Part shown: positions 3,781 through 32,222 of the stretch, one piece after another
How the letters are laid out: the number at the start of each line of letters is the position of its first letter
Numbering within the stretch: position 1 is the first letter of the stretch
Source of the DNA: a virus
Lineage: Duplodnaviria; Caudoviricetes
Virus record (IMG/VR): IMGVR_UViG_3300014641_000001
Coordinates: 32,001-96,000 of that record
Direction: 5' to 3' (one strand)
Length of the DNA stretch: 64,000 nucleotides
Program-made: the position numbers and the translations under genes
The notes under the pieces: generated by a model
The model's database searches: none
What the model saw: only the letters and a program-made list of their open reading frames with translations
Told to the model about the DNA's origin: nothing

Positions 3781-5153
3781 ATGGCTGATTTTAGAACTCT
3801 CGTAGAACTTATATTTGATAAAGCAAAAGCGAGAAATGAATTAAATAGCATTTTAAAGGAATTACAAAAAGACGCCAATTTAAAAACGGAAATAAAAGTC
3901 GGTACTTCTGAAGCAAAGAAGGCAAAAAAGGATTTAAATGAAACCGCTTCAGCAATTGGGAAGATTGTAACTGAATCTAGGCAGTTGTCAAAAGTTAATA
4001 CAATTAAGACATGGGCTGACAACAACACTAAAGCCATGAAGATGTTTGGTGATCAGATTCAGGACATCATCACCAAAATGGGAAAGGCTAATCTTTCGCT
4101 GTCTGATTTTAAAGGTCTAGATGCCGATTTTAATAGGATTAAAATAGCGTCCAGAGATATGAATTTACTTGGTAAGACCTGGGGTGATTCGTTTAAGGCA
4201 GACGCAAGCAAATTTGCTTCATGGTTGCTTCCTTCTGGCGGAATCATGACTGCCATTAGTGGACTGCGTAAAATGAAGGATTCTATCGTTGATATAGATA
4301 CAGCCATGACTAATCTATATAAGGTGTCCGATGAAACAGACTCAAAATATAGACAGTTTCTTCAAAGTTCAAATATAGAAGCCCAGAGACTTGGGAGAAC
4401 AGTATCCAGTCTCATTGAGCAAACTGCAACTTGGAAAAAACTTGGTTTTACCACTGATGAGTCAAGTGAATTGGCGAAAATATCATCAATTTATGCTAAC
4501 GTAGGTGAAGTGTCTGATGACACTGCTGTTTCGGATTTAGTGACAGCAATGAAAGCCTTTAACATTGCAGGATCAGACAGTATAACAATTGTAGATTCGC
4601 TTAACAAATTGGGTAACGAATTTGCTACCGATGCTGCCTCTCTCGGAGAAGGACTAAAAAACTCCGCATCTTCTCTTCGTCTTGCAGGAAACGATATAGA
4701 TCAGACTCTTGCTATGCTAACAGGTGGTACAGAAATTATTCAGAATGCAGGAGAAATGGGAAATGCTCTGAAAATACTGAGTATGAGAATACGAGGTATG
4801 AAAGGCGAGCTGGAAGCACTCGGAGAAGAATATGACAATGTGGAGTCAATATCAAAAATCCAAACCCAGATCTTGAATCGTACTGGCGGTACAGTAAATA
4901 TATTTGACAATAATGGAAACTTCAAGTCTACGTATGAGATACTAAAGGGAATATCAGAAGTATGGGATAAAATTTCTCAAACCGACCAGGCCGACCTTTT
5001 AGAAGTTATCGCGGGTAAACAGCGCGGTAACAGCGTTGCAGCTTTAATTCAATCATTCCAATCTGGGCAAGTGCAAAAGGCATTAGAGGCTTCAATGAAC
5101 TCTGCTGGATCAGCTTATGAAGAACAGAGCAAATGGATGGAATCAATTGAGGC
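3781..5153 (+). CDS. Tape measure protein, exon 1 (TP901-type core domain)
   Basis: IDTAMTNLYKVS...IVDSLNKLGNEFA...GNALKILSMRIRG...AGKQRGN; ORF runs into group I intron P1. Confidence 0.9.
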
Positions 5154-5563
5154 AGACTTTTGCCTCGTTGCGTAGAAATATGTAACATTAATATATTTAA
5201 TTGCAGGTAATGCCTTAGAGCCTTACACCACAATATAGGGGAAACCACTATATGATGGTTTTACAACGTAAGGATTGGCTGTTCATGCAGCGAAGCACCC
5301 TAACGTATTCCGTAGACCATACGGTACTTTAGTCGAGGGTGAACGTTCAACGACTAGATTCATGTCGAGATTTGGACTAGAGAATAAGGGTGGAAATCCC
5401 GAATATCCAGATCAATAATCGTAGGGCGCAAATCGCAAATGGCGTGGGTGAAATTCCCTTAAATCGAAAAGGTATACTCTCAGCACGTAGTGGTGGAGAT
5501 GAAGAAATAGTCTAGTCTCATATGAAAATATGAGTTGATTGTTATTATAAAAAAGGAGTTTGA

Positions 5564-5697
5564 ATGAAAAAATTCGTCAAAGAATATTCAACTCAATTAA
5601 CCCCATTAAAGGAGTATTTGGAGAAGGAATTAAATCCTCTTTCGCAAAAGTGATCTAAGGAGTAACTACATATAAGTACACAAATTCTGGAGAGTAA
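5564..5697 (+). pseudogene. Degenerate small ORF inside intron 1
   Basis: SD AAGGAG + MKKFVKEYSTQLTPLKEYL, then frameshifted GIKSSFAKVI*GVTTYKYT. Confidence 0.45.
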
Positions 5698-5761
5698 TTT
5701 ATATTACTCTCCTATTTTTATACAAGTAAATAGATAATTAAAGGAGAATAAACGTGGATAA

Positions 5762-7198
5762 ATGAACAAAAAATATAATCAAGAGAAGGCAATAGAAATT
5801 ATGCAGTCATACGGATATAAACTTGACGACATATATAAATCATATAACCATAAACTAAGAATAGTTGATAATGATGGATATATCTATTATAGAAGCCTTG
5901 GTGACATATTATCAAATAAAACACCCACGAAATTTGGTCGTGGGAATCCATTTACAATTGAGAATATTAAAAATTACACTTATCAAAATAATATACAAAC
6001 ACAATTGCTGTCTGAATCTTTTACTGAATCTAGTGGTTTATTATTATGGAAGTGTAGTTGTGGCAAATCATATACATGCTCGTGGAATGCATTTGAAAAC
6101 GATAAACATTTATGCAATGATTGCTCGATTAAAGACAGAGGACTTAAGCAAAGAATCAACAAGGCTAATGTAATTGATAAGGTTAAAAGTATGGGCTATC
6201 ATATTGTTGAAATTGCTGATGATATATGTGTTTTCGACAGCATAAAAATATCAGACGATTTAGGATATAAATATTATCCAGTAATAAATAATATCATATA
6301 CGATAAAAGACCTTTTAGGTTTCATAAATCAAATATTTTTTCAATCGATAATGTAAATAACTATTTTAGGCTAATTGGAGAAACTGATTATACATGCGTT
6401 AGCAATGAATATATTGACAATACCTCTGACTTGGAAATATTACATAAAAAATGCGGAACGGTATTTAATGCCAAACTCACTAAACTAACTGACAAAGGAG
6501 TTAGTTATTGCAATATGTGTCCAAAATGTAAAACGACTAAAACCGAATCGGTTCACGCATCAGTTCTGAAACAAGTATTTCTAAATAAACATCCTGATTC
6601 TGTATTAGAGGATAAATCTTGCATAAACTCAAAGACAGGCTACTCGCTCCCTACTGATATCGTTAATCACAGATTAAAATTGGCAATAGAAATACAAAGT
6701 TCTCTACATGATAATAGAAAGGATATTGATCTGTATAAAAAGAATTTCTGGATTGATAGAGGGTATGATTTTTATTCTCCCGATATTAGAGATTATTCTA
6801 TATTGGGTATGATACAATTATTTTTTAAAGATATCGAATCAATACCAAAATATATAGATTATAACTTTTCGAATTGTGTGGATTTCATCGAAATACAAAA
6901 CATGATTGATTCGGGGCATACGATTATTGAGATAGCTAGTATTAAGAATATCTCAGAAGCTACAATAAGGGGGCTCGTCACTGACAAAAAGGTAATCTTG
7001 CCTCCCGACTATAAAAATAAAATATTTAAAATAAAACCCATATTAAGGCTTGATGTTAAGGGAAATGTAATTAAAAGATATGAATCGTTAAGTTCTATAT
7101 CAAGAGATGGATTCGCCACAGGTACCATTAGAAGAGTATTAAAAGGTAAACAAAAGTTGTCGTATGGAACGAAATGGATTTATGACATAAAAAAATAA
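5762..7198 (+). CDS. Intron-encoded homing endonuclease-like protein (Zn-ribbon repeats, Vsr/EDxHD-like nuclease, NUMOD1-like C-terminus)
   Basis: CxC/CxxC repeats, LPTDIV...LAIEIQSSLHD, C-terminal KPILRLDVKGNVIKRYESL...KWIY; lies in a peripheral intron loop. Confidence 0.75.
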   Translation: MNKKYNQEKAIEIMQSYGYKLDDIYKSYNHKLRIVDNDGYIYYRSLGDILSNKTPTKFGRGNPFTIENIKNYTYQNNIQTQLLSESFTESSGLLLWKCSCGKSYTCSWNAFENDKHLCNDCSIKDRGLKQRINKANVIDKVKSMGYHIVEIADDICVFDSIKISDDLGYKYYPVINNIIYDKRPFRFHKSNIFSIDNVNNYFRLIGETDYTCVSNEYIDNTSDLEILHKKCGTVFNAKLTKLTDKGVSYCNMCPKCKTTKTESVHASVLKQVFLNKHPDSVLEDKSCINSKTGYSLPTDIVNHRLKLAIEIQSSLHDNRKDIDLYKKNFWIDRGYDFYSPDIRDYSILGMIQLFFKDIESIPKYIDYNFSNCVDFIEIQNMIDSGHTIIEIASIKNISEATIRGLVTDKKVILPPDYKNKIFKIKPILRLDVKGNVIKRYESLSSISRDGFATGTIRRVLKGKQKLSYGTKWIYDIKK

Positions 7199-7244
7199 AA
7201 ATAACAATCAAAGAATGGTATTGCGAACCATTCTAAATATATCG

Positions 7245-7434
7245 AAAAACACAACAGTATGAAGCTTCATTTCAATCACTATCACAAACTATTATTAATT
7301 CAAATTTCTTAAAGTTTCTTATAGATTCTGGTACGACATTTAATAATGTATTAGATAAGACAATAAACGGCTTTGGTGTTTTGTCTACTACGCTTTCCGG
7401 TGCTGGTATAGCGGCATTCATTAAAAACTACGGT
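7245..7434 (+). CDS. Tape measure protein, exon 2 (not in ORF track)
   Basis: 190 nt reading KTQQYEASFQSLSQTIINSNFLKFLIDSG...GAGIAAFIKNYG; in frame with exons 1 and 3. Confidence 0.85.
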
Positions 7435-8124
7435 TAACTCTGTAATAAGAGTTACGCTTAAATTTCCGAGGGATTTAAGTTGGCCTATCATGGGGAAGAA
7501 TATATCATAATGGCGATATAAACAATTCCATGGGACGAAAGTTTTAAAATAAAAAGAGGATTAATTGCTTGAAAGTGTAATGCTCACTACTCTTCTATTT
7601 TAGAAGAAACCGAAAAATAAGGTAAATAAGTCAAACGGTTTACACACCGGAGTGAGATTTCTAGGGATAAAAAATAATTCCCGACAGATGTACAATCACC
7701 AACGAAGCAGCTAGCCCTATCTGTGTATCACGATGTATAATCCGATGGTAACAATTGCGCAAGCAATGTCGGGATAAGATCATTAATGATAGGGAGTGTT
7801 CAGAGAGCACCACTCCTCACAGTACATGAAAGCCATATTTCATTGTGCTGTTAACGCATGTTCCAAAGTGTACACGATATCAACGCTTCACGAGGCGCTG
7901 GATATTATAATGTTGTAAAAGATATGGGCTACAGCCTATCATTGAGCGTAATATGGAAAAGTTAATCGTTTCTATGTTATGTATCAAAATAGTTATGTAG
8001 ATTCTCCCATATTTTTAAATAAAGTATTTATTCTCCTTTTTATATGATTGAATACTAATATAATGTACCATCCTATATATTGTTTGAATATAATACAATA
8101 AATCAAATGGAGATGTATAGAAAT

Positions 8125-8283
8125 ATGACGAAAAAAATTATTAATTTGACCGAAGAAGGCGAAGCTCTAGGATATCCAAAAACTCCAGATTCTGAGATGA
8201 TAGAGATGGGTATATTTGATGGAAAGATAATCAATTTTATAAAAGTAATGTTTATAAAGATAGTTAAAATGATGAAAAGGTAG
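8125..8283 (+). CDS. small hypothetical protein (intron cargo)
   Basis: Part of ORF 8080-8283; GGAG upstream; ends in a terminator hairpin; start uncertain. Confidence 0.5.
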   Translation: MTKKIINLTEEGEALGYPKTPDSEMIEMGIFDGKIINFIKVMFIKIVKMMKR

Positions 8284-8298
8284 TCAATAGACTACCTT
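8277..8298. terminator. Bidirectional terminator-like hairpin between convergent cargo genes
   Basis: AAGGTAGTC-AATA-GACTACCTT. Confidence 0.6.
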
Positions 8299-8458
8299 AT
8301 TCCTCGTTCTTTTTATTTTTGTCGTTATCATTAACATGTTTAATTTCTGAGAACATCTCTACCACATATTCTGGTCTAGGCGTACTTGGATACTGTTCTC
8401 CTTTTTCATTGGTGTTATTAGTACTTGTCATCTTGATAACATTTTCATCGTCTGACAT
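8297..8458 (-). CDS. small acidic protein, 53 aa (intron cargo)
   Basis: SD GGAGG; MSDDENVIKMTSTNNTNEKGEQYPSTPRPEYVVEMFSEIKH...; overlaps the upstream gene's end. Confidence 0.6.
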   Translation of the reverse strand: MSDDENVIKMTSTNNTNEKGEQYPSTPRPEYVVEMFSEIKHVNDNDKNKKNEE

Positions 8459-9023
8459 TTATTTCTCCTCCTTCTATATGAATATTTTGTATATTATTAT
8501 TTATAAATTTGGTCTCATAGTAATCAATACCGACACCGAATGTATACGATAAAATAGATACTGCGAAAGTGATGCATATGAAATAACTCAACGATTTATG
8601 TTTCATGTTCTTTGTAATGTTCACATTTCTATTATGAATGGCTTCATTAATAAAACATTCACAGAGCATATTATTTACATGTATATCTGCTTTTTTAATA
8701 TGCTTTTTATCTGTCATTTGATATGTTTGTGAGATCGCAACAGCCATATCTTTAATTGGGAAATAACTCATTTTATAGCCAGAGTATGCTTTATAAAACT
8801 TGTGCAAGCAAATTATAAATAAAATCGTTGACAAAGCGCAAAATATCAAGTAAACAATAGTACACCATGATAAAGAAAAACGAACAAATTGTGACCAAAG
8901 TAATATTTGTGCACTACCAAGTATTGTAAGAAACGTAATACAAGTATTAATTTTATTACTTAATCTATCGGAATATTCTATCTCCTTATAATATAAATCT
9001 TTGTATTCTTCAAGCAATTCCAT
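8445..9023 (-). CDS. 3-TM membrane protein, SLATT/Pycsar-effector-like topology (intron cargo)
   Basis: Three hydrophobic segments; SD AAGGAG. Confidence 0.7.
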   Translation of the reverse strand: MELLEEYKDLYYKEIEYSDRLSNKINTCITFLTILGSAQILLWSQFVRFSLSWCTIVYLIFCALSTILFIICLHKFYKAYSGYKMSYFPIKDMAVAISQTYQMTDKKHIKKADIHVNNMLCECFINEAIHNRNVNITKNMKHKSLSYFICITFAVSILSYTFGVGIDYYETKFINNNIQNIHIEGGEINVRR

Positions 9024-9309
9024 ATGATGATGTTCTCCTTTGTATCATATGGAATATTTTACCATCGTCAATACAATAAAACAAGAAACAGATGTTTGTC
9101 GATGAGGATATAAAATCGACATATTTCGACATTTATAATATTGAGTTAGTCATTAAGCTGTATATTAAAATAACATAAGCTGAACCCCTCTTTTATACTA
9201 CAATCTTGCGTCTTACTAGCTTCATTGTTTTCAAAATTTTTATACCTATCTGGAAATTTCTTCCACTCCATGATATAATAATTTTTAAAAGAGATACAGG
9301 AGGGATTGT

Positions 9310-9900
9310 ATGAAAAGGTTGGTTTTAGGGTTGTTATGTATCACTGTATGTTTACAATTAAGTGCTTGTGATAAAAACACGTCGGTCACCACAAGTAAAG
9401 AAAAAGAAACAATAACAGAATCATCAAATTTATCTGAAGATGAACAGAAAGCAGAATTAAATGCGATCTATCAAGAAATTGACGAAGCAAATAAATACTG
9501 TAATGATTTGGCAAAACTATTATATGACTATTGGGACAACCGTGAATATGAAGCGTTTTTTGACCACAGTGTTTTTTTGGAAAGAGATAAAAAATATAAT
9601 ACATACGGGAATTATAATAGTGGTAGTTTTTATGGCGATGCAAAGACCTGCTATGAATATCGTGATAAAATTGAAAAAAATATGGAAGATGCACGTCAAA
9701 GATTGAAAGAATTAGAGGTGTCTGAAAGTGTACAGGGGTATTATGATTCTGTAAAGAAGTTGTATTTGAATGTCGATGCATATCATAGTTTTGCATCTGA
9801 TTTCCCAGAAGGTTATTCAAAAATTACATATTCTCAAACATTTAGTAAACATCAATCAGAATACGACTCTTTAATAAGTGAATTAAAGTTTGAGCAGTAG
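9310..9900 (+). CDS. Lipoprotein (intron cargo)
   Basis: Signal peptide with lipobox LSAC; SD AGGAGG; followed by a terminator. Confidence 0.8.
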   Translation: MKRLVLGLLCITVCLQLSACDKNTSVTTSKEKETITESSNLSEDEQKAELNAIYQEIDEANKYCNDLAKLLYDYWDNREYEAFFDHSVFLERDKKYNTYGNYNSGSFYGDAKTCYEYRDKIEKNMEDARQRLKELEVSESVQGYYDSVKKLYLNVDAYHSFASDFPEGYSKITYSQTFSKHQSEYDSLISELKFEQ

Positions 9901-9969
9901 TATATAAAAAGTTTGCTGACAGTATTAGTATATTCTAATAAATTATTTTTAGATATGATCACAAAATTT

Positions 9970-9998
9970 AGAGCCAGTTATTTGACTAGCTCTTTTTT
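9970..9998 (+). terminator. Rho-independent terminator inside intron 2
   Basis: AGAGCCAGTT-ATTT-GACTAGCTCT then a T-tract. Confidence 0.65.
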
Positions 9999-10063
9999 GT
10001 ATATAAAAGGGAGCAAAAATGCACTATCATATACGCTACAATTTTTCGATTTACTAATATCAA

Positions 10064-10489
10064 TCAAAACTTACTTCCACAGTTATTACACTTCCAAGTC
10101 TTACCGTTATCTCCCATGCCGAAAATTCCAAATGCAGCTATCTTTGCGACCTTTTTTGTTGCGGATATTTTAGAGAGGTTTGTGCTGCTACATGTGGGGC
10201 ACTTTGGAACATTTTGATGTGTACCTTTTGGAATGTATCCGGCTAAAAGACGAGTATCGCTTCCGGTAGTGGGTAAATCTTCTCTTGTGATTAAATCTGT
10301 GTCGGAAACATTCCCACAACAACATGTAATTAGAATTCCATCTTTTAACTTGCAATAATCTGAATTTACTCTATCAAATTTGTCATCTATTCCCTCTTTT
10401 ACAAATATTGTATTCCCGCATTTTTCGCAGAGTATTTCTATTTCTATTGGTGATCCATTCTCGTTATTAATAGCTTTTTTTAAATACAT
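10064..10489 (-). CDS. Zn-ribbon protein with C-terminal CxxC-hydrophobic-CxxC module (intron cargo)
   Basis: CEKC, CPTC...IAAFGIFGMG...WKCNNCG; SD GGGAGG before ATG 10489. Confidence 0.75.
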   Translation of the reverse strand: MYLKKAINNENGSPIEIEILCEKCGNTIFVKEGIDDKFDRVNSDYCKLKDGILITCCCGNVSDTDLITREDLPTTGSDTRLLAGYIPKGTHQNVPKCPTCSSTNLSKISATKKVAKIAAFGIFGMGDNGKTWKCNNCGSKF

Positions 10490-10518
10490 AGTTCCCTCCC
10501 TATACATATTTTATTATG

Positions 10519-13500
10519 CAACTGCAATCCCTCGGAAAGTCGATTGTGAACTTTAATAGCATTATAGCATCTGGGACAGGAACAAATCAATCTTTTGCGA
10601 AAGTTTTAGAAGGGATTAGCACACAGGAAAAAATCAATTTAGTAACTAGAAGCAGTCTAACCGATGCTCAAAAGATTGGTATTCTTGCAACAGCTGGTTT
10701 AAGTGCAGAGGAATTGAAAGCAGTAGCTTCCACTACTACTCTCTCCACTTCACAGACCACTGCAACAGCAACTACAACTGGATTCGGTACTGCCCTTAAA
10801 GGTCTTTGGGCAACCATGATGGCAAATCCTTTAATTGCAATAGGAATGGCCGTAACAGCTATCTCAACAGCATGGAATATTTATAATCAGTCCATCGAAA
10901 AAACAAGACAAGCTTCGGCCGATGCGGCGGGCGCATTAAACGAAACCACCTCATCAATTAATGATTATGCTGAAAAGTATAAAAAATTACACGATGAACT
11001 TGTCAAGGCAAATACTACCGAAGAACGTCAACATGAAATAAAAAGTGACCTTCTTGCGCTTCAACAAGAATTAAATGATAAGTACGGAGATGAATATGGC
11101 AAATTAAATCTTGTTACAGATGCTTATAATGATCAAACCGATGCAATCCTAGCAAGAAACAAAGCCGCGGCGCAGAATTATCTTCTTGAAAATAGAAAAG
11201 GTATAGCCGATGCTACAAAACAAATGGAACAAGACCGCACTTATACACTTGGTAGCACTGGTAATTTATCAAACGACTATGCAAAAGAAATATATAATAT
11301 AGCGTCAAAATATTCAGACCAGGGCATAAAATTAGAGTCTCTTAAAAATAACGGAGTAGATGCCTATACTATTAAGTTTTATGGAAATGCAGAAAATGCA
11401 GAAAAAGTTATACGTAGCCTCTCCAATGAGATCCAAGATCTTGGGCATAAATACGAAGATAATAATTTCATCAATGGATTCTTAGATAACTCAACAAATG
11501 CACTTAAAGAGAATCAAAAAACATTAGATAAATATGATGAAATATATAACTCTGCATTGATGTCTCAAATTGCAACTGACAATGAATTGTCGGGAGGTTA
11601 CGAGAAGGCCACAAGTGCCGTTAAAGCATATAACGATGCACTAATTTCTGGTGACGAATCTAAAATATTATCGACAAGAGATGACCTCAATGAAGTTAAA
11701 AATTCCATTGATTTAACAAGCGAAAACTGGAAACGATACGGGAATGTAATGACTGATATTTTCAGCCAGGCAAACACAGGGCTATACGATTTCAGAGATG
11801 CACTCTCTTCAAACAACGATAATATCAAAGACTATGCTAAAAGTCTAAAAGGTTTATCAAAGACAGATGTAATGTCCATGGCAAATGATGGGCAAGATGA
11901 TAACTTTGATAAAATAGTTAAATCTGCTGATAAATATGGATTAAGCGTTAACCAGGTCATCGATGAACTAATCAGATTGAAATACGTTCAAGATGATATC
12001 TTCAAGTCTGGTGAAGCAACATTCACTCCTCTCTCCAAACAAGAAGTAATTTCAAACATCAATTCACTGTCCGAAGGTTTTGAATCCCTTGATAAAATTA
12101 TGAAGAGCATATCCGACAAAGACAATCCATTTGACTATGCTCTGCTTGATGATGGTAAGTTTACGAAGATATTCAGCACCCTAAATGATGGTGGTGAAGC
12201 TTACGCTAACTTCATCGAAAAAGTGTCGTCATCACCCAAAGATATAAAAGCTACTCAAAGTGCATTTAACGATCTGGTAACAACTTGGATTGATAGCTCT
12301 GGTGTATTAGATGGGCTTACCGAAGACAATGCTAACCTTGCTACTGCTATGCTTCAGAATATGGGTGTTGCTAATGCCGAAGAAGTTGTAATGACAAGAC
12401 TTTCCATTGTACAGGAACACCTGGCAGCGCAAAAAGCTTATACGGCAGAAATGAGTGACGCTCTCGCCAATGCTACAGCTAGTGAAATTCCAGGAATCAT
12501 AGAAGAAGCAACTCAAAGTGACATAGCTAAAGTTGCACTGGCTGGTCTGGTATTAGAGAAAGAATTCTTCAATGGAAATGCACTAGATACTAGTGGTGAC
12601 ATTGAGAATATTATCTCTCTTGTTGGAGTAATTGGAACTGCTAATACGGCACTCAAAGCTTTAAATACTTTAAAGGCCGGAGGTAGTGTTGGTGGCAACA
12701 TAGGCGGAAAAGAAGGTTATGAAGCTCTTGTAAGAAATGCAGAAAAGGAAGCCGAAGACGCAATAAAATCTGCTTCCGAATATAAAGGCAAGGGAGCAAA
12801 TATTAATGCATCGTATACAGGTGGTACAAAAACAAATAAACCATCTGGCTCTAAAAAGGATAAAAAAGATTTCTCAGAAGTATTTGACTGGGTAGAAACT
12901 ACAATTAAACGAGTAGACGAAAAGATCCAAGACATCCAGAGTAAAATTTCTGATACATCAAACTGGAAGCCTAAAAACACTCTTACAGATACAGCTATTG
13001 ATGAAATGGCAAATAAAATAACTGCCTTACAGTCTCAGTTAGATACATACCAGAAGAAGGCAGATTCTTACAACCTCTCTCCCACTTACATAGACAAAAT
13101 CAAAAATGGCACTCTTGAAATTGAAACTGTTACTGATGAAGTAATTGCAAACAATATCAAAGGTTATCAAGAATGGTATAACAAAGCTGAAGATGTTCGC
13201 AAGAAGATAGATGAAACAAAAAAGACTTTGAAAGAACTTGCTCAGACCAAACTTGAAAATATTATCAATGATTTTGATAGTCTTGTTTCGTTAATGGATA
13301 AGTACGCTTCATATAGTAATAATCTTTTAAATCTACAAAAGGAATTGGGCGAATCTATTACCAATACAGATTATGAACGGTTAATTAATCAACAGGAAGC
13401 AATTTATAAGCAGTTGCATAGTAAGTATAATTCGCTATCCAATGAATTATCTAAAGCGGTAAGTAAAGGAACAATTGAGGTGGGTTCAAATGAATGGCGT

Positions 13501-15333
13501 AAATACAACGAGGAATTAATTGCTGTAAATTCCTCTATGAATGATGCTGTTTCTTCAATGAACGATTTCAGAAAAGCACTAATCAACTTGCCATTTGAGG
13601 AGCTAGAGAGGATTTCTAGTGCACTCGATGGAATTAACAATGGAATCAACACCATGTCTGATCTAATTGGCGACGATGGACTTTTAGACGGAGGAATGCT
13701 TACATCTAAGGGTCTTGCTAAAATTGCTCTATTAGGACAACAGTATGCTAATGCTAAACAACAAGCGGCCGATTACGAAGAAGCCATTAATGCTATTAAT
13801 GAGATGTATGAAAATGGTTCTCTCACACAGGCCGAGTATAACGAAAAACTCAATGAATATACCAACGCTCAATTATCAGCAGTAAAAGCTACGAAAGAAG
13901 CCGAACAAGCTATCTTGCAGTTTAGATATAATGCAATCCAGGCACAGATAGATGATATGAATAATTTAATTGCTGCCAAGAAGAAAGCATTGCAGACTGA
14001 AAAGGACTATCAGGATTATCTTGAAAGTATTAGCGAGAAACAGACTGACATTAATAATTTACAGGCAAAGATTGATGAACTGTCACTGTCTACCGATAGG
14101 AAAGATATTGCACAGAGATTACAGTTAGAACAGCAGCTATCAGATGCAAAGAAAGATTTGGCTAAGACACAAGCTGACTATGCTTATGATAAAACTATTG
14201 AAAGCCTAGATAAGCAGGAAGAGGACTATCAGGACGCAAAGAAAAAAGAGCTTGATGAACTTAAGTCAAATACTGATGCACAGAAGAAGGTAATAGAAGA
14301 ATATCTCGGACAGGTAAAAGATAACTACAAAACAGTCTACAATACCCTGACTAAGTATGGAACCGATTATAATGTTACCATGACTAGCGAACTAACTTCT
14401 CCATGGGAGTCAGCTAATAGCGCCGTGTCTACATTTAAAGACGCTGTGTCAGAAGCTATCTCACAGATTAATATTGACATTGCTAATATTGATTTGTCAA
14501 AGCTTACAGAATTAGTGAGTACAATGCAAGGATTCTCCGCAGGTGGAAATAATTCGGCTTCATTTGAGGATATTACCGGTTCCGGAACGTGGCAAAAGAA
14601 CTCTAGGGGCTGGTGGTACGGAGCTTCTAATGATGATTACGCTTCTGATGGAATCTACACCATTGGAGGTAAGCAGTATAGCTTCAACGAAGATGGCTAT
14701 ATGAAAACTGGTTGGGACGATAGCAATGGTGATTGGCGGTATTTTGAGCCTGAGAATGGTCAGATGGTTAAATCTGCATGGAGAAAGTCTAAAGATGGTA
14801 AAGACTACTATCTGAAATCTGATGGTACTATGGCTACAGACATGGCTATCAAAGCGAAAGACGGCAACGGGTATTATTATATTGATGACAGTGGTGTATG
14901 GGACGGAAAAACAATATCCTATGATGATGTGAAAAAGAGAAATATCACTGTTGGATATAAAAGTGGCACTACTAATTCTAAGCCAGGATTAAAATATGTT
15001 AACGAAGATGGGCCAGAATTGATTGTTGCTAAAAATGGTACTGTTCTCAATTCAGTAGGTGGCGATACCATCTTTACAAAGAATATGACTGATAAGCTAT
15101 GGGATTTTGCTATTGATCCAAGTAAGTTTGTGTTGGCTAATATGCCGAAGTATGATTATAGGGCAATGGCTATGGCTAATCGAAACAACGTTTCTATGAA
15201 TATCGATAGCCCACTACTTGTAGTACAGGGTAACGCAGATAAAGAAGTATTAACTCAAATGAATGAAAGACTAGATACTTTCATTAACAAGGAAATACCT
15301 CAGAAAATGATGGAAATGTCAAAACAACATTAA
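10519..15333 (+). CDS. Tape measure protein, exon 3, with C-terminal cell-wall-binding repeats
   Basis: Long coiled-coil/Ala-rich ORF with no SD before ATG 10516; WWY/YSFNEDGYM/YYLKSDGTM repeats; followed by tail genes. Confidence 0.9.
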   Translation, partial: QLQSLGKSIVNFNSIIASGTGTNQSFAKVLEGISTQEKINLVTRSSLTDAQKIGILATAGLSAEELKAVASTTTLSTSQTTATATTTGFGTALKGLWATMMANPLIAIGMAVTAISTAWNIYNQSIEKTRQASADAAGALNETTSSINDYAEKYKKLHDELVKANTTEERQHEIKSDLLALQQELNDKYGDEYGKLNLVTDAYNDQTDAILARNKAAAQNYLLENRKGIADATKQMEQDRTYTLGSTGNLSNDYAKEIYNIASKYSDQGIKLESLKNNGVDAYTIKFYGNAENAEKVIRSLSNEIQDLGHKYEDNNFINGFLDNSTNALKENQKTLDKYDEIYNSALMSQIATDNELSGGYEKATSAVKAYNDALISGDESKILSTRDDLNEVKNSIDLTSENWKRYGNVMTDIFSQANTGLYDFRDALSSNNDNIKDYAKSLKGLSKTDVMSMANDGQDDNFDKIVKSADKYGLSVNQVIDELIRLKYVQDDIFKSGEATFTPLSKQEVISNINSLSEGFESLDKIMKSISDKDNPFDYALLDDGKFTKIFSTLNDGGEAYANFIEKVSSSPKDIKATQSAFNDLVTTWIDSSGVLDGLTEDNANLATAMLQNMGVANAEEVVMTRLSIVQEHLAAQKAYTAEMSDALANATASEIPGIIEEATQSDIAKVALAGLVLEKEFFNGNALDTSGDIENIISLVGVIGTANTALKALNTLKAGGSVGGNIGGKEGYEALVRNAEKEAEDAIKSASEYKGKGANINASYTGGTKTNKPSGSKKDKKDFSEVFDWVETTIKRVDEKIQDIQSKISDTSNWKPKNTLTDTAIDEMANKITALQSQLDTYQKKADSYNLSPTYIDKIKNGTLEIETVTDEVIANNIKGYQEWYNKAEDVRKKIDETKKTLKELAQTKLENIINDFDSLVSLMDKYASYSNNLLNLQKELGESITNTDYERLINQQEAIYKQLHSKYNSLSNELSKAVSKGTIEVGSNEWRKYNEELIAVNSSMNDAVSSMNDFRKALINLPFEELERISSALDGINNGINTMSDLIGDDGLLDGGMLTSKGLAKIALLGQQYANAKQQAADYEEAINAINEMYENGSLTQAEYNEKLNEYTNAQLSAVKATKEAEQAILQFRYNAIQAQIDDMNNLIAAKKKALQTEKDYQDYLESISEKQTDINNLQAKIDELSLSTDRKDIAQRLQLEQQLSDAKKDLAKTQADYAYDKTIESLDKQEEDYQDAKKKELDELKSNTDAQKKVIEEYLGQVKDNYKTVYNTLTKYGTDYNVTMTSELTSPWESANSAVSTFKDAVSEAISQINIDIANIDLSKLTELVSTMQGFSAGGNNSASFEDITGSGTWQKNSRGWWYGASNDDYASDGIYTIGGKQYSFNEDGYMKTGWDDSNGDWRYFEPENGQMVKSAWRKSKDGKDYYLKSDGTMATDMAIKAKDGNGYYYIDDSGVWDGKTISYDDVKKRNITVGYKSGTTNSKPGLKYVNEDGPELIVAKNGTVLNSVGGDTIFTKNMTDKLWDFAIDPSKFVLANMPKYDYRAMAMANRNNVSMNIDSPLLVVQGNADKEVLTQMNERLDTFINKEIPQKMMEMSKQH

Positions 15334-15436: not shown

Positions 15437-16225
15437 TTGCATAGTCTATTTACATTCGGCGAAAACAGCAGCGATGAATTTGGAGTAATTGCAGTATATT
15501 TCGAAAATAATAAATATCAAGGATTATACAGTGGTCAGTCTACAGAATTAATAACCGATAAATCTGCACAATCTTTAGAATGGGAAATCATATCGCAGAA
15601 TTATGATAAGCCAATGGAATTTATATTTCAAATCATTAATTCAGATGGGTCTCCTATAAGTCAGGAGCAGCAACGTGCAATATCTAAATGGCTATGTAAG
15701 CGTGGTGAATATAACTGGCTATTCATTCAAGACGAATACTATTCTGATATATGGTTGCATTGCAATATCAATCATCCGCAAGTATGGGCAGTAAATGATA
15801 CAGTGGGCATGCAATTTACTGTAACTACCTCTTCTGCTTTAGCCTTTTCGGAGGAACATGAATACTACTTCTCTCTCACTGACAACAATAAAATAATTGA
15901 TGACCTATATATAGTCAACGACGAGGAGATTCATATATTTCCATATATAGAAATTACTATGTTGAAATCCGGCAATCTTGAAATAAGCAACAGTCAAGAA
16001 ATCGATTCAGAGTATGTTATGAAAATAAAGAATGTAAGCATTGGTGAAAAAATCGTATTAACTACAGACGGTATAATCTCGTCTTCTATCACAAGTCACG
16101 ATGTATTGAATGATTCTAATTTAAAGTGGCTTAAATTTTATGAAGGCAGCACTGTACTTACTTTTAATCTTGCTTGTGAAGGAGTGATTAAATATAGAGA
16201 ATATCGAAAGTTGGTGGCATTTTAA
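15437..16225 (+). CDS. Distal tail (Dit-like) protein
   Basis: Directly after TMP; FTFGENSSDEFGV...WLFIQD...GMQFTVTTSSALAFS; TTG start after GGAGG. Confidence 0.7.
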   Translation: MHSLFTFGENSSDEFGVIAVYFENNKYQGLYSGQSTELITDKSAQSLEWEIISQNYDKPMEFIFQIINSDGSPISQEQQRAISKWLCKRGEYNWLFIQDEYYSDIWLHCNINHPQVWAVNDTVGMQFTVTTSSALAFSEEHEYYFSLTDNNKIIDDLYIVNDEEIHIFPYIEITMLKSGNLEISNSQEIDSEYVMKIKNVSIGEKIVLTTDGIISSSITSHDVLNDSNLKWLKFYEGSTVLTFNLACEGVIKYREYRKLVAF

Positions 16226-24622: not shown

Positions 24623-25798
24623 TTAGCTTATCATAGGCAACGTCATTGCCTTAGCAGCTTCTTCATCCAATACATGAATATAAGAATTATATGTTGTTGT
24701 GGTATTGCTATGCCCCATTAATTTACTTACTACAGATATTTCTACACCCTTTCGAATTAGCTCTGAACCAAATGTATGTCTTAGTAGGTGCACCCAAATA
24801 TGTGGAAGCTCAGTTCCTGCAATAATCGCATCTAACGCTCTCTGTATACTCCTAGCTAACGTATATCCACCGGTTTCGCTACAGCAAACAATATCAGATA
24901 TAATATCTTTCTTCTTATTACTCTCGTTTATTTCTGATAAAATAAATTTAATTTCATCATTCATAGGAATAATTCTATTAGATTTTCGGGTCTTTGTACT
25001 TTTAATGAAAGACTGTCTTGTATTGGAACTTTCACTTTTTACATTATATTGCATCGATTTGTTTATTTTAATTATATTGTTTACAAAATCGATATCGTTC
25101 CACTCTAGTGCAACGGCTTCACCAATTCGCATACCAGTATTTAGGATTAAAAGAAGTGTAAGCCCATATCTGTATTTATAAGAATCATTACTGTTATTTT
25201 TCTGTAAACAAAGTTCCTTGAATATGGTAATCTGATCTGGTGTTAGTGCAAACGTCTCTTTTCTTTTCACATTGCAGAAAGTTTCTTTTGGAATTACTAC
25301 GCCTTGCATTGGATTAAAATTTATATCCTTATTTTTTATTGCGTAACTATACACTCCTGAAACGAATGCGAAAATATTTTTAATTGTTCCGTAGCTATAT
25401 TGTTTATCTGAAGAGGTTGCAAGTGAATTAAAGAAATCCTGTAGCTCATCTGCTTTCAGCGACCCAAACTGTTTGTTACGAATTTTAGATTCTCCAATTT
25501 GCTTATTCACAATAATATCAAGTCTATTATACGTCGATAACTCAATTGTTTTACTTTTCTTCTTGATATAATTTAAGCAATAATCATAAAAATTCGCTGT
25601 TTTTGGATTTATTAGCCCATCATCATATTCTCTAATTATTGACTTTAGTTTTCTTTTACACTCTGCTTCACTTTTACCATATACATATTTCGTCAATCCA
25701 TTTAAAGTGACTCTTCCCTCGTGTCTACCGTCTGAACGTTTTCTAACACTTCCTTCGTGCCATGAATTACGTTTATTCTGTTTTTGTGTAACACTCAT
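24623..25798 (-). CDS. int: Tyrosine integrase
   Basis: N-terminal arm-binding GSVRKRSDGRHEGR; catalytic TGMRIGE, K, HLLRHT, MGH, Y. Confidence 0.95.
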   Translation of the reverse strand: MSVTQKQNKRNSWHEGSVRKRSDGRHEGRVTLNGLTKYVYGKSEAECKRKLKSIIREYDDGLINPKTANFYDYCLNYIKKKSKTIELSTYNRLDIIVNKQIGESKIRNKQFGSLKADELQDFFNSLATSSDKQYSYGTIKNIFAFVSGVYSYAIKNKDINFNPMQGVVIPKETFCNVKRKETFALTPDQITIFKELCLQKNNSNDSYKYRYGLTLLLILNTGMRIGEAVALEWNDIDFVNNIIKINKSMQYNVKSESSNTRQSFIKSTKTRKSNRIIPMNDEIKFILSEINESNKKKDIISDIVCCSETGGYTLARSIQRALDAIIAGTELPHIWVHLLRHTFGSELIRKGVEISVVSKLMGHSNTTTTYNSYIHVLDEEAAKAMTLPMIS

Positions 25799-31648: not shown

Positions 31649-32222
31649 CTCCCAATACTAATTCTCTAAACATCGGTAGCTCTTCAACCCATTTACAAAA
31701 TGCTCTCCATTCAAGGAGTCGGTGATTTCTTCGCTGATAATACATAGTCTTCAACTGCTGATAATTTGTAGTAAATCCAGCAGTTAACTCAAACCCGGAA
31801 GGAACGTTATATAGAATTGTCAAATATAATTCCATTGCAAACTCAGTCCCTTTGTCTTCCAACCCGTTATAGACATCAATCATTTCTTGAACTACATCAA
31901 TTATTCTCTGATCTACATATTCATTACATTGATTTTTAAAAGCAAATTTTGTGATACGATGCATAGTTGACTGACTGGAAATAAAGTCTATGAAGTGGTA
32001 CCTCTCTAGCTCCACGGACATCTTGTTTGAAAATCTCATATCAAACTGAACTACTATCCCCTTAAGGAAGTTATCATGACCTGTGCCTGATTTACATGAT
32101 CCCAACTTTGTAGTTGTTTTCGTAACTTCTTTTGTACAGTCTTCTGCGTTTACTGCCATTGGCAACTTACTTACTCTGATAGCATTTTCAAGACCATAAA
32201 CATTTACATTGCTAATCTGCAT
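31641..32222 (-). CDS. ThyX-like (flavin-dependent thymidylate synthase fold) phage protein
   Basis: GHDNFL, ELERYH, SQSTMH, NYQQL...QRRNHRL.EW; nucleotide-metabolism context. Confidence 0.6.
   Translation of the reverse strand: MQISNVNVYGLENAIRVSKLPMAVNAEDCTKEVTKTTTKLGSCKSGTGHDNFLKGIVVQFDMRFSNKMSVELERYHFIDFISSQSTMHRITKFAFKNQCNEYVDQRIIDVVQEMIDVYNGLEDKGTEFAMELYLTILYNVPSGFELTAGFTTNYQQLKTMYYQRRNHRLLEWRAFCKWVEELPMFRELVLGGE

Follow-up and report, generated by a model that had tools for sequence, protein, structure and literature searches.

A Putative Group I-Type Intron Family with Variable Gene Cargo in Phage Tape Measure Genes

Group I introns of bacteria and phages are seen as small selfish RNAs which carry at most a homing endonuclease or, in IStrons, an insertion sequence. 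The classical phage introns with endonuclease open reading frames (ORFs) are those of T4 td, nrdB and nrdD and of Twort orf142. The subject here is positions 7435-10518 of a 64,000-nucleotide (nt) stretch of phage DNA (the window), which covers positions 32,001 to 96,000 of the IMG/VR record IMGVR_UViG_3300014641_000001, a virus contig of 124 kb with a completeness rating of ~61%. This region interrupts the gene of a tape measure protein (TMP). It probably belongs to a widespread family of self-splicing introns of group I type in TMP genes that remains undetected by Rfam. Below it is called intron 2, and a separate group I intron further upstream in the same gene is called intron 1.

Like the classical phage introns, intron 2 lies in a phage gene, has a U.G pair at its 5' splice site and a terminal G, and keeps its ORFs in peripheral regions. 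However, the classical introns contain one sense-strand homing endonuclease and a short P10 (the pairing with the 3' exon), whereas here no endonuclease was matched, several genes are distributed over the two strands, and the P10 is long and covaries. In IStrons (CdISt1, BcISt1 and relatives) an IA2 ribozyme is joined to an insertion sequence located 3' of P9.2 (PMC4227781, PMC3984707). Intron 2 resembles them in its 5' ribozyme, non-endonuclease genes (1-2 kb in IStrons) and distant 3' splice site (PMC4227781, PMC3984707), in its occurrence in Clostridia (IStrons also occur in Bacilli) and in the extra hairpins of its P1 region. The differences are considerable. IStron ribozymes are of the IA2 type with P7.1/P7.2, whereas here only CCA (3 nt) separates P7 from the 3' strand of P3 (P3'), and the core is therefore not IA-type with these helices. 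The cargo of IStrons is an IS200/IS605 or IS607 element whose transposase genes give mobility, whereas in the present family there is no transposase match and the accessory genes are variable and mostly antisense. IStrons also occupy many sites, and the present family mainly one TMP codon.

Group I introns in TMP genes have been described as TMP-IVS1/2/3 in prophages of the Bacillus cereus group (PMC2504315). As in these introns (PMC2504315), in intron 1 and in the intron of Thomasclavelia phage TR-TP1, intron 2 lies in frame in TMP, with a stop codon at or near its start and P1/P10 adapted to the site. However, the TMP-IVS introns are small (IA1/IA2), can be recognised by homology to known phage introns and contain at most a homing endonuclease (PMC2504315). 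Unlike them, the present family is missed by the Rfam group I model RF00028, contains other genes amounting to as much as ~6.6 kb and uses a guide of 18-20 nt for the 3' exon. The hexacoral mitochondrial ND5-717 group I intron contains many unrelated genes (up to 18-19 kb) within an essential gene (PMC6545197). That intron is organellar and has essential mitochondrial genes in P8 (PMC6545197), while here the cargo is located 3' of P9 and is accessory and variable. The premise of the original prediction, made from the letters of the window, that group I introns normally carry at most a homing endonuclease was too broad: IStrons (PMC4227781) and ND5-717 (PMC6545197) are exceptions. The literature search found no paper that reports phage group I introns whose accessory cargo is variable and comprises several genes, or whose P10 covaries over ~20 nt.

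The interrupted tape measure gene

A protein-guided scan of viral contigs recovered 16 related TMP loci (relatives are designated by L numbers). In one of them, L006 (66% identical), TMP is a single uninterrupted ORF of 2229 amino acids (aa). In the window the gene spans 3781-15333 in three pieces, all in frame 1:

3781-5153, plus strand: TMP exon 1, 1373 nt; PhageMin_Tail and phrog_4211 matches
5154-7244, plus strand: intron 1, group I; core 5144-5534; HNH-type endonuclease ORF 5762-7198 located 3' of the core
7245-7434, plus strand: TMP exon 2, 190 nt; collinear with L006 and TR-TP1; P1 covariation
7435-10518, plus strand: intron 2, 3084 nt; first three bases an in-frame TAA, last base G10518
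10519-15333, plus strand: TMP exon 3, 1604 aa and a stop codon; matches to phrog_4211 and further TMP profiles; collinear with L006

The ORF at 3781-5175 matches PhageMin_Tail and positions 578-883 of the phrog_4211 profile, which resumes from position 954 in the 1605-aa ORF at 10516-15333. Exon 2 ends with ...AAC TAC GGT at 7434, followed by TAA. The three pieces align with L006 without an indel at either junction. The residues at the intron-1 junction (slashes mark junctions) are WMESIEA/KTQQY, and the intron-2 junction, NYG/QLQSLGK in the window and NFQ/DLKSAGT in L006, is in frame as had been predicted. Exact removal of 7435-10518 (3084 nt) restores collinearity with L006, and the result is therefore a normal TMP of 1373 + 190 + 4815 nt, or 2125 aa.

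Alternatively, splicing might not take place at all. An accessory island would then split TMP into separate N- and C-terminal proteins, or the gene would be dead in a defective prophage, and the conserved RNA would have another role, for example as a regulatory leader for the cargo. This is very unlikely. Exon 3 does open with ATG in the window and some records of the family are proviruses. However, G10518, correctly described in the original prediction as the G of the ATG of the 1605-aa ORF, is not preceded by a purine-rich Shine-Dalgarno sequence (SD) on the plus strand, and the ATG is not kept in relatives: the 3' splice site reads TAG/CAA in L010 (a stop codon), AAG/TCA in L041 and TTG/CAA in L004. 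This lack of conservation is evidence against an independent translation of exon 3, and the intron-less L006 shows that the ancestral gene was a single ORF.

Intron 1 provides an internal comparator. It scores 56.2 bits with RF00028 (cut-off 50), both on a short stretch and in a genome search, and its endonuclease ORF matches phrog_559 (HNH endonuclease). Whole-window Rfam scans missed it through filter loss, whereas the blank for intron 2 remains on a short stretch. Four public DNA runs that were compared contain relatives at 90-95% identity, with contigs from three studies. Intron 1 is absent from L003 and L004 and from DNA contigs X2 and X3, and the end of exon 1 was placed at 5153 by these two loci and by the contigs, which join 5153 to 7245. 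At its 5' splice site C5153 is paired with G, which replaces the usual U.G; its P10 is short (4 bp, UUUU/AAAA) and its core and 3' splice site are 1.7 kb apart. Judged from its sequence, an ordinary group I intron with a distant 3' splice site is thus demonstrably present in the TMP gene, as an element separate from intron 2.

A megablast search against cultured phages gave no match. In Thomasclavelia phage TR-TP1 (L001; PQ571309) TMP is annotated as separate coding sequences interleaved with HNH endonuclease genes. RF00028 matches there with 54.6 bits (record positions 24639-24977, locus 4307-4645), and that gene is therefore probably intron-split and not fragmented. The C-terminal part of exon 3 in the window (14650-14900, residues ~1379-1462) has matches to choline-binding repeats and endolysin PHROGs, which suggests that the TMP C-terminus is fused to a cell-wall-binding or lytic module.

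The RNA core and its relatives

Members of the family share one layout: a ribozyme (P1-P9, ~470 nt) at the 5' end, variable cargo, and a terminal G. Their insertion site is one conserved TMP codon, KN[YFL][GDA]/[QS][LF]x..G, in large phages and prophages of Clostridia/Lachnospiraceae. In the window the RNA elements are the following:

7435-7454, plus strand: hairpin A, at the first intron base; TAACTCT/AGAGTTA; compensatory changes in relatives
7457-7482, plus strand: hairpin B; the exon-3 guide (P10) at 7463-7482 is made up of its loop, its 3' strand and the three bases that follow
7483-7485, plus strand: 3' strand of P1 (GCC); G7483 pairs with U7434
7488-7533, plus strand: P2/P2a hairpin; compensatory changes in 7/8 and 5/6 pairs
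7556-7863, plus strand: ribozyme core P3-P8 with a P3/P7 pseudoknot
7556-7560/7814-7818, plus strand: P3
7565-7570/7705-7710, plus strand: P4
7583-7682, plus strand: branched extension of P5
7715-7721/7788-7794, plus strand: P6
7722-7787, plus strand: extension of P6
7805-7809/7859-7863, plus strand: P7
7819-7831/7838-7851, plus strand: P8
7881-7900, plus strand: P9-like hairpin (CAACGC/GCGCTG); conservation among close relatives stops near 7906

The joining segments (J) flanking P4 read AATTGCTTGAAA (J3/4-P4-J4/5) and the R-like element reads GTTCAGAGAGCACCA. Motifs similar to the RF00028 consensus are AAUUGCUUGAAA (J3/4-P4-J4/5), GUUCAGAGAGCACCA (J6/7-P7) and AACGCAUGUUCC (J8/7-P7'). Further resemblance to that consensus is found in AAUUGC..GAAA, in GUUCAGAGA.. 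and in the G-A/U-C start of P7. A convincing pairing for P9.0 was looked for and none was found.

To collect the cores of relatives, viral, metagenome and genome collections were scanned with patterns, and nhmmer was then applied. Homologous cores, about 20 of them distinct, are present in phage and prophage loci of Clostridia/Lachnospiraceae, among them prophages of Clostridium sp., Lachnospiraceae, Hungatella hathewayi and Lacrimispora. Cultured carriers are Hungatella hathewayi WAL-18680, Lacrimispora sp. HJ-01 and Clostridium sp. HBUAS56010, whose loci are L051 (950-nt intron), L053 (3.9 kb) and L048, respectively. The pattern matches L024-L031 are not homologous by nhmmer and have no Rfam match. 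Over the first ~450 nt the identity to the window is 99% in L003, 93% in L004, 81% in L005, 74% in L010 and 75% in L014, and everything downstream differs. Genomes with a rating of complete, among them G001 with its terminal repeats, retain this layout, and so do TMPs that are only 44-96% identical. Such retention weighs against the alternative without splicing.

A group I-type structure (P1-P8, the two P1-loop hairpins and the P7 pseudoknot) was placed on an alignment of 20 sequences (A2). With this topology 89.0% of the cells pair, as opposed to 39.7-45.3% when partners are slid, and changes on both sides are seen in 62/108 pairs versus 17-22 in the slid controls. The covariation score is 0.368 (controls: 0.058-0.078) and was reached by none of 500 shuffles, although the aligned sequences are related and the shuffle statistics overstate their independence. 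P3, P4, P5, P6 and P8 stand in the canonical group I order, with 79-95% of their cells paired and with 1, 2, 4, 5 and 7 compensatory pairs, respectively.

Some variation around this structure was observed. A hairpin GGAGTG/CACTCC (7792-7817) overlaps P3', has one compensatory change (GGAATG/CATTCC in L005) and may be an alternative conformer of the core. L055 (5397-5991, minus strand) shares the P1/hairpin/P2 module and the guide logic, while its RNA beyond P2 is unalignable to the family core and has no Rfam match; this may be a case of module exchange between ribozymes. L046 contains two full family introns after two different exons, both ending AACCTGGAT, which points to a spread of the family to a second, similar site.

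Splice sites and the exon-3 guide

At the 5' splice site the final three bases of exon 2 (GGT, 7432-7434) are the exon strand of P1 and face GCC at 7483-7485. The U.G pair (U7434.G7483), also part of the original prediction, is kept in 17/18 aligned sequences. The middle pair of P1 is AU in nine sequences, GC in five and CG in three, giving the states GGU/GCC, GCU/GGC and GAU/GUC. A pairing of the exon end with J8/7 proposed by RNAalifold was dropped in favour of P1 with G-N-C, which has these three compensating states. All 7/7 introns checked at the 5' end open with an in-frame TAA, TGA or TAG, and a leading stop codon was likewise noted in Bacillus group I introns by Tourasse and Kolsto (PMC2504315). 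The ten introns with a mapped 3' end all finish with G. The 3' splice sites in L005, L045, L048, L034, L042 and L043 were not placed, as the downstream sequence was short or there was no clear match.

Directly 5' of the P1 strand lies the guide (7463-7482), which is complementary at 18/20 positions to the first 20 nt of exon 3 (10519-10538); recomputation gave the same figure as originally reported. In L003, L004 and L053 the same or nearly the same guide faces a different exon sequence, again at 18/20. The guide/exon pentamers are CCGAG/CTCGG in the window, CCCAG/CTGGG in L010 and CCTAG/CTAGG in L051. These pairs compensate across lineages, and the guide therefore changes together with the third, synonymous position of a Leu codon. 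In L055 the guide is quite another one, ACTCTCC, opposite exon GGAGAGT, and L014 has 11 contiguous guide-exon pairs. Compensatory changes were found in all of L010, L051, L055, L014 and L041. When all guides were paired with all exons, own duplexes had a mean of -19.5 kcal/mol and cross pairs -8.8, and the observed total was reached by the true assignment only (1/5040 permutations). Separate proteins with an unspliced RNA between them would not call for one guide region that pairs with both exon borders and undergoes compensatory changes.

P10 is usually much shorter than ~20 nt. The original prediction had explained the length of this guide as a means to locate a splice site 3 kb away. Its covarying pairing is borne out, but the explanation is not: the long guide is also present in members of 864 and 950 nt and is therefore a trait of the family, not an adaptation to 3 kb or to the size of the cargo. 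A candidate alternative acceptor at 16127 reaches 18/20 only with nine G.U pairs, is essentially a CTTAAAT match and was rejected as chance. A sharp mosaic block (10214-10680) that takes in the zinc-ribbon N-terminus (see below), the 3' splice site and ~54 codons at the start of exon 3 is swapped between relatives (L003, L004, contigs X3 and X4), with 91-96% identity on both sides. The guide pairs 18/20 with each version of this block.

The conserved pairings suggest the following putative course of splicing in cis through the cargo. The last three bases of exon 2 would pair with G-N-C at 7483-7485, with U.G at the splice site, and an exogenous G would cut after U7434. The ~20 nt 5' of G-N-C would first be held in hairpin B, which partly sequesters the guide, and in a P1 extension formed with intron positions +1 to +5 (7435-7439 can pair with 7478-7482 as an alternative to hairpin A). 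In the next step the same ~20 nt would form pairs with exon 3 over its opening ~20 nt. AGUUG at 7478-7482 can pair with either UAACU (intron +1 to +5) or CAACU (exon 3 +1 to +5), which is, as far as complementarity can tell, the classical exchange between P1 extension and P10. The exon-3 pairing would bring G10518, ~2.6 kb past the core, into the G-binding site of P7, and ligation would produce a single 2125-aa TMP with the predicted junction AACTACGGT/CAACTGCAA.

Cargo genes and their turnover

Introns at the same TMP codon have lengths of 864, 950, 1468, 3084, 3498, 3857, 4416, ~4400 and 7108 nt, and close relatives with the same core at the same codon contain different gene sets. The cargo of the window, between the core and the terminal G, comprises:

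8080-8283, plus strand: cargo ORF, at most 67 aa; followed by a hairpin at 8283-8300; identical in L003
8297-8458, minus strand: 53-aa acidic protein, part of a cargo operon (8297-9023); SD seen
8445-9023, minus strand: 192-aa membrane protein with about three hydrophobic segments; SD; promoter-like site 9071-9044
9310-9900, plus strand: lipoprotein, 196 aa, lipobox LSAC; own SD; promoter-like site 9251-9279
9970-9993, no strand assigned: terminator-like hairpin flanked by T runs on both strands
10064-10489, minus strand: (double) zinc-ribbon protein, 141 aa; probable start ATG 10489, SD GGAGGG

A further ORF at 9913-10173 is probably not a gene because it overlaps the terminator-like hairpin. 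The ORF at 8080-8283 has no family match. As had been predicted, none of the five cargo ORFs resembles a nuclease: there is no nuclease family match in Pfam, PHROGs, PADLOC or NCBIfam, including the LAGLIDADG, GIY-YIG, HNH, His-Cys and PD-(D/E)xK endonucleases, and no defence or transposase family match.

In L003 the first three cargo genes of the window are followed by a 363-aa ORF and by a zinc-ribbon protein whose N-terminus differs. L004 has NYN, YbjQ, 369-aa and lipoprotein-like genes, L053 has another mix, and L055 has four antisense genes. The cargo of L010 and L051 consists of the zinc-ribbon gene only. The 7108-nt intron of L014 (11462-18569), at the same TMP site, contains at least six ORFs, while the closely related L035 has an intron of ~4.4 kb. 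PADLOC and NCBIfam searches of the cargo found nothing except the NYN-domain protein in L004. In contigs X1 and X3, 2392 and 2524 other letters stand in the place of the window cargo, which has been exchanged and not deleted. This replaced stretch (2.4-2.5 kb) sits between the same core and the conserved C-terminal segment of the zinc-ribbon gene. The swapping of cargo behind the same core supports the intron as a slot for accessory genes. The comparison of related phages that accompanied the original prediction therefore turned out as foreseen in its three parts (conserved core, covarying guide/exon-3 pairs, variable cargo). As for its notion of a neutral landing pad for morons, the role of cargo carrier agrees with the differing gene sets of close relatives, while neutrality is a supposition. 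The interior genes would use their own SDs and promoter-like sites, many on the opposite strand, and would be exchanged by recombination. The intron would in this way act as a slot for accessory (moron-like) genes within an essential late gene, and any benefit of the cargo is likewise presumptive.

The zinc-ribbon gene recurs beside the core. Its C-terminal ~50 aa (CPxC...FGIFGMGDNGKTWKCNNCGSKF; 10066-10213 in the window) are 80-90% identical in >300 protein clusters, whereas the N-termini are unrelated. The idea that the protein is a hidden nuclease found no family match and no nuclease fold in a moderate AlphaFold model (pLDDT 70), which neither supports nor excludes it. In Foldseek the best rows for this model were zinc-ribbon subunits of RNA polymerase (E ~0.4), and there was no fold match at E <= 0.001. 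The gene starts 29 nt from the 3' splice site, and a promoter-like site for it (10590-10561, minus strand; TTGATT-18-TATAAT with TG) lies inside TMP exon 3. Running through 10490-10538, a transcript from this site would therefore lie antisense to both the 3' splice site and the P10 target, and it would contain a near copy of the guide. It could allow antisense control of splicing.

The zinc-ribbon protein also invites the view that the insertion is a DNA-level mobile element, a transposon or an IStron-like insertion sequence which is removed or tolerated in some other way, and in which this protein would be a DNA-binding or transposition factor. It has weak, sub-threshold matches to N-terminal zinc-binding domains of transposases, and IStrons show that group I ribozymes can fuse with insertion sequences (PMC4227781). 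In L044 (oriented minus, 4050-8057) a unit of core and antisense zinc-ribbon gene is repeated three times in tandem within 4 kb, and two of the units lack the 5' hairpin. Even so, such an element is extremely unlikely. Family searches found no transposase, recombinase or nuclease domain in the cargo, the zinc-ribbon has no significant fold match, and the borders have neither terminal repeats nor target duplication. As for the 18/20 inverted repeat, its right arm belongs to the coding part of TMP and is homologous to L006. The zinc-ribbon family is also found away from introns, in chromosomal contexts (some near cotJ/smpB), and the intron of L004 has no zinc-ribbon gene.

Several observations weigh against the group I intron reading itself, in addition to the shared ancestry of the aligned sequences. 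RF00028 gives no match at E <= 10 on a 561-nt stretch (7400-7960) that spans the core, whereas both controls, intron 1 (56.2 bits) and TR-TP1 (54.6 bits), are detected. It also fails on the compact version of L014 and on the records of relatives. The model search foreseen in the original prediction was thus negative, a result that also counts in favour of the alternative without splicing. In P7 (GAGCA/UGUUC) all cells (100%) are paired, but the only changes are one-sided, from A-U to G.U, and its 3' strand was preset by the search patterns; the pseudoknot is therefore consistent with, but not proven by, covariation. The complete group I core that had been claimed accordingly holds for the named helices, which exist and are kept in relatives, and lacks the Rfam match and compensatory support for P7. 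The exon part of P1 is just 3 bp. No spliced RNA or junction peptide was seen, and no RNA run among the public runs contains the stretch. Finally, the pre-mRNA must pass the terminator-like hairpins at 8283-8300 and 9970-9993 and the antisense units.

This last point leads to an unlikely variant in which the intron is the same but its halves are not joined in cis: transcription would stop in the cargo and a separate exon 3 would be captured in trans, or antitermination would be needed. Both hairpins have T runs, three of the five cargo genes are antisense with their own promoter-like sites, and a weak plus-strand promoter-like site is found at 10380-10409. A guide of ~20 nt, far above the usual length of P10, would suit intermolecular capture. 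However, the consensus scans are weak (two terminator-like sites where 1.1 are expected, and 25 promoter-like sites where the expectation is 19.4), a 3' piece that begins near 10416 would have just the terminal G and no ribozyme helix, and the guide is equally long in the 864- and 950-nt members. Read-through, antitermination or trans-splicing are possible variants of simple cis splicing. On the strength of conservation and covariation intron 2 is real and conserved: a group I-type intron whose cargo varies, whose 3'-exon guide covaries and is unusually long, and whose splicing is putative.

A wider extension is doubtful when its parts are taken jointly, namely that the family is a general exchangeable cargo platform of phages, with a guide reaching over kilobases or in trans and an ancestral module of core and zinc-ribbon gene. 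In such a platform the co-evolving ~20-nt guide and the ribozyme would let genes park in an essential late gene without cost, and those parked there may be, among others, of the envelope, exclusion, toxin-antitoxin or defence type. The guide would select a 3' splice site many kilobases off, possibly on a separate transcript (trans-splicing). The zinc-ribbon protein would be a new kind of intron mobility partner or a splicing cofactor.

Since the family is invisible to the Rfam group I model, intron surveys under-count it. The cultured hosts carrying members make the intron claim directly testable. The long covarying guide offers a natural system in which to test how a ribozyme locates a splice site at a distance of kilobases, a question that bears on tools for engineered trans-splicing and RNA circularisation. 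For the phages themselves, the family would explain why many TMP genes of gut phages are annotated as split. Independently expressed, swappable genes amounting to 0.4-6.6 kb within an essential virion gene would add a third route of moron acquisition to inter-gene insertion and hitch-hiking with endonucleases.

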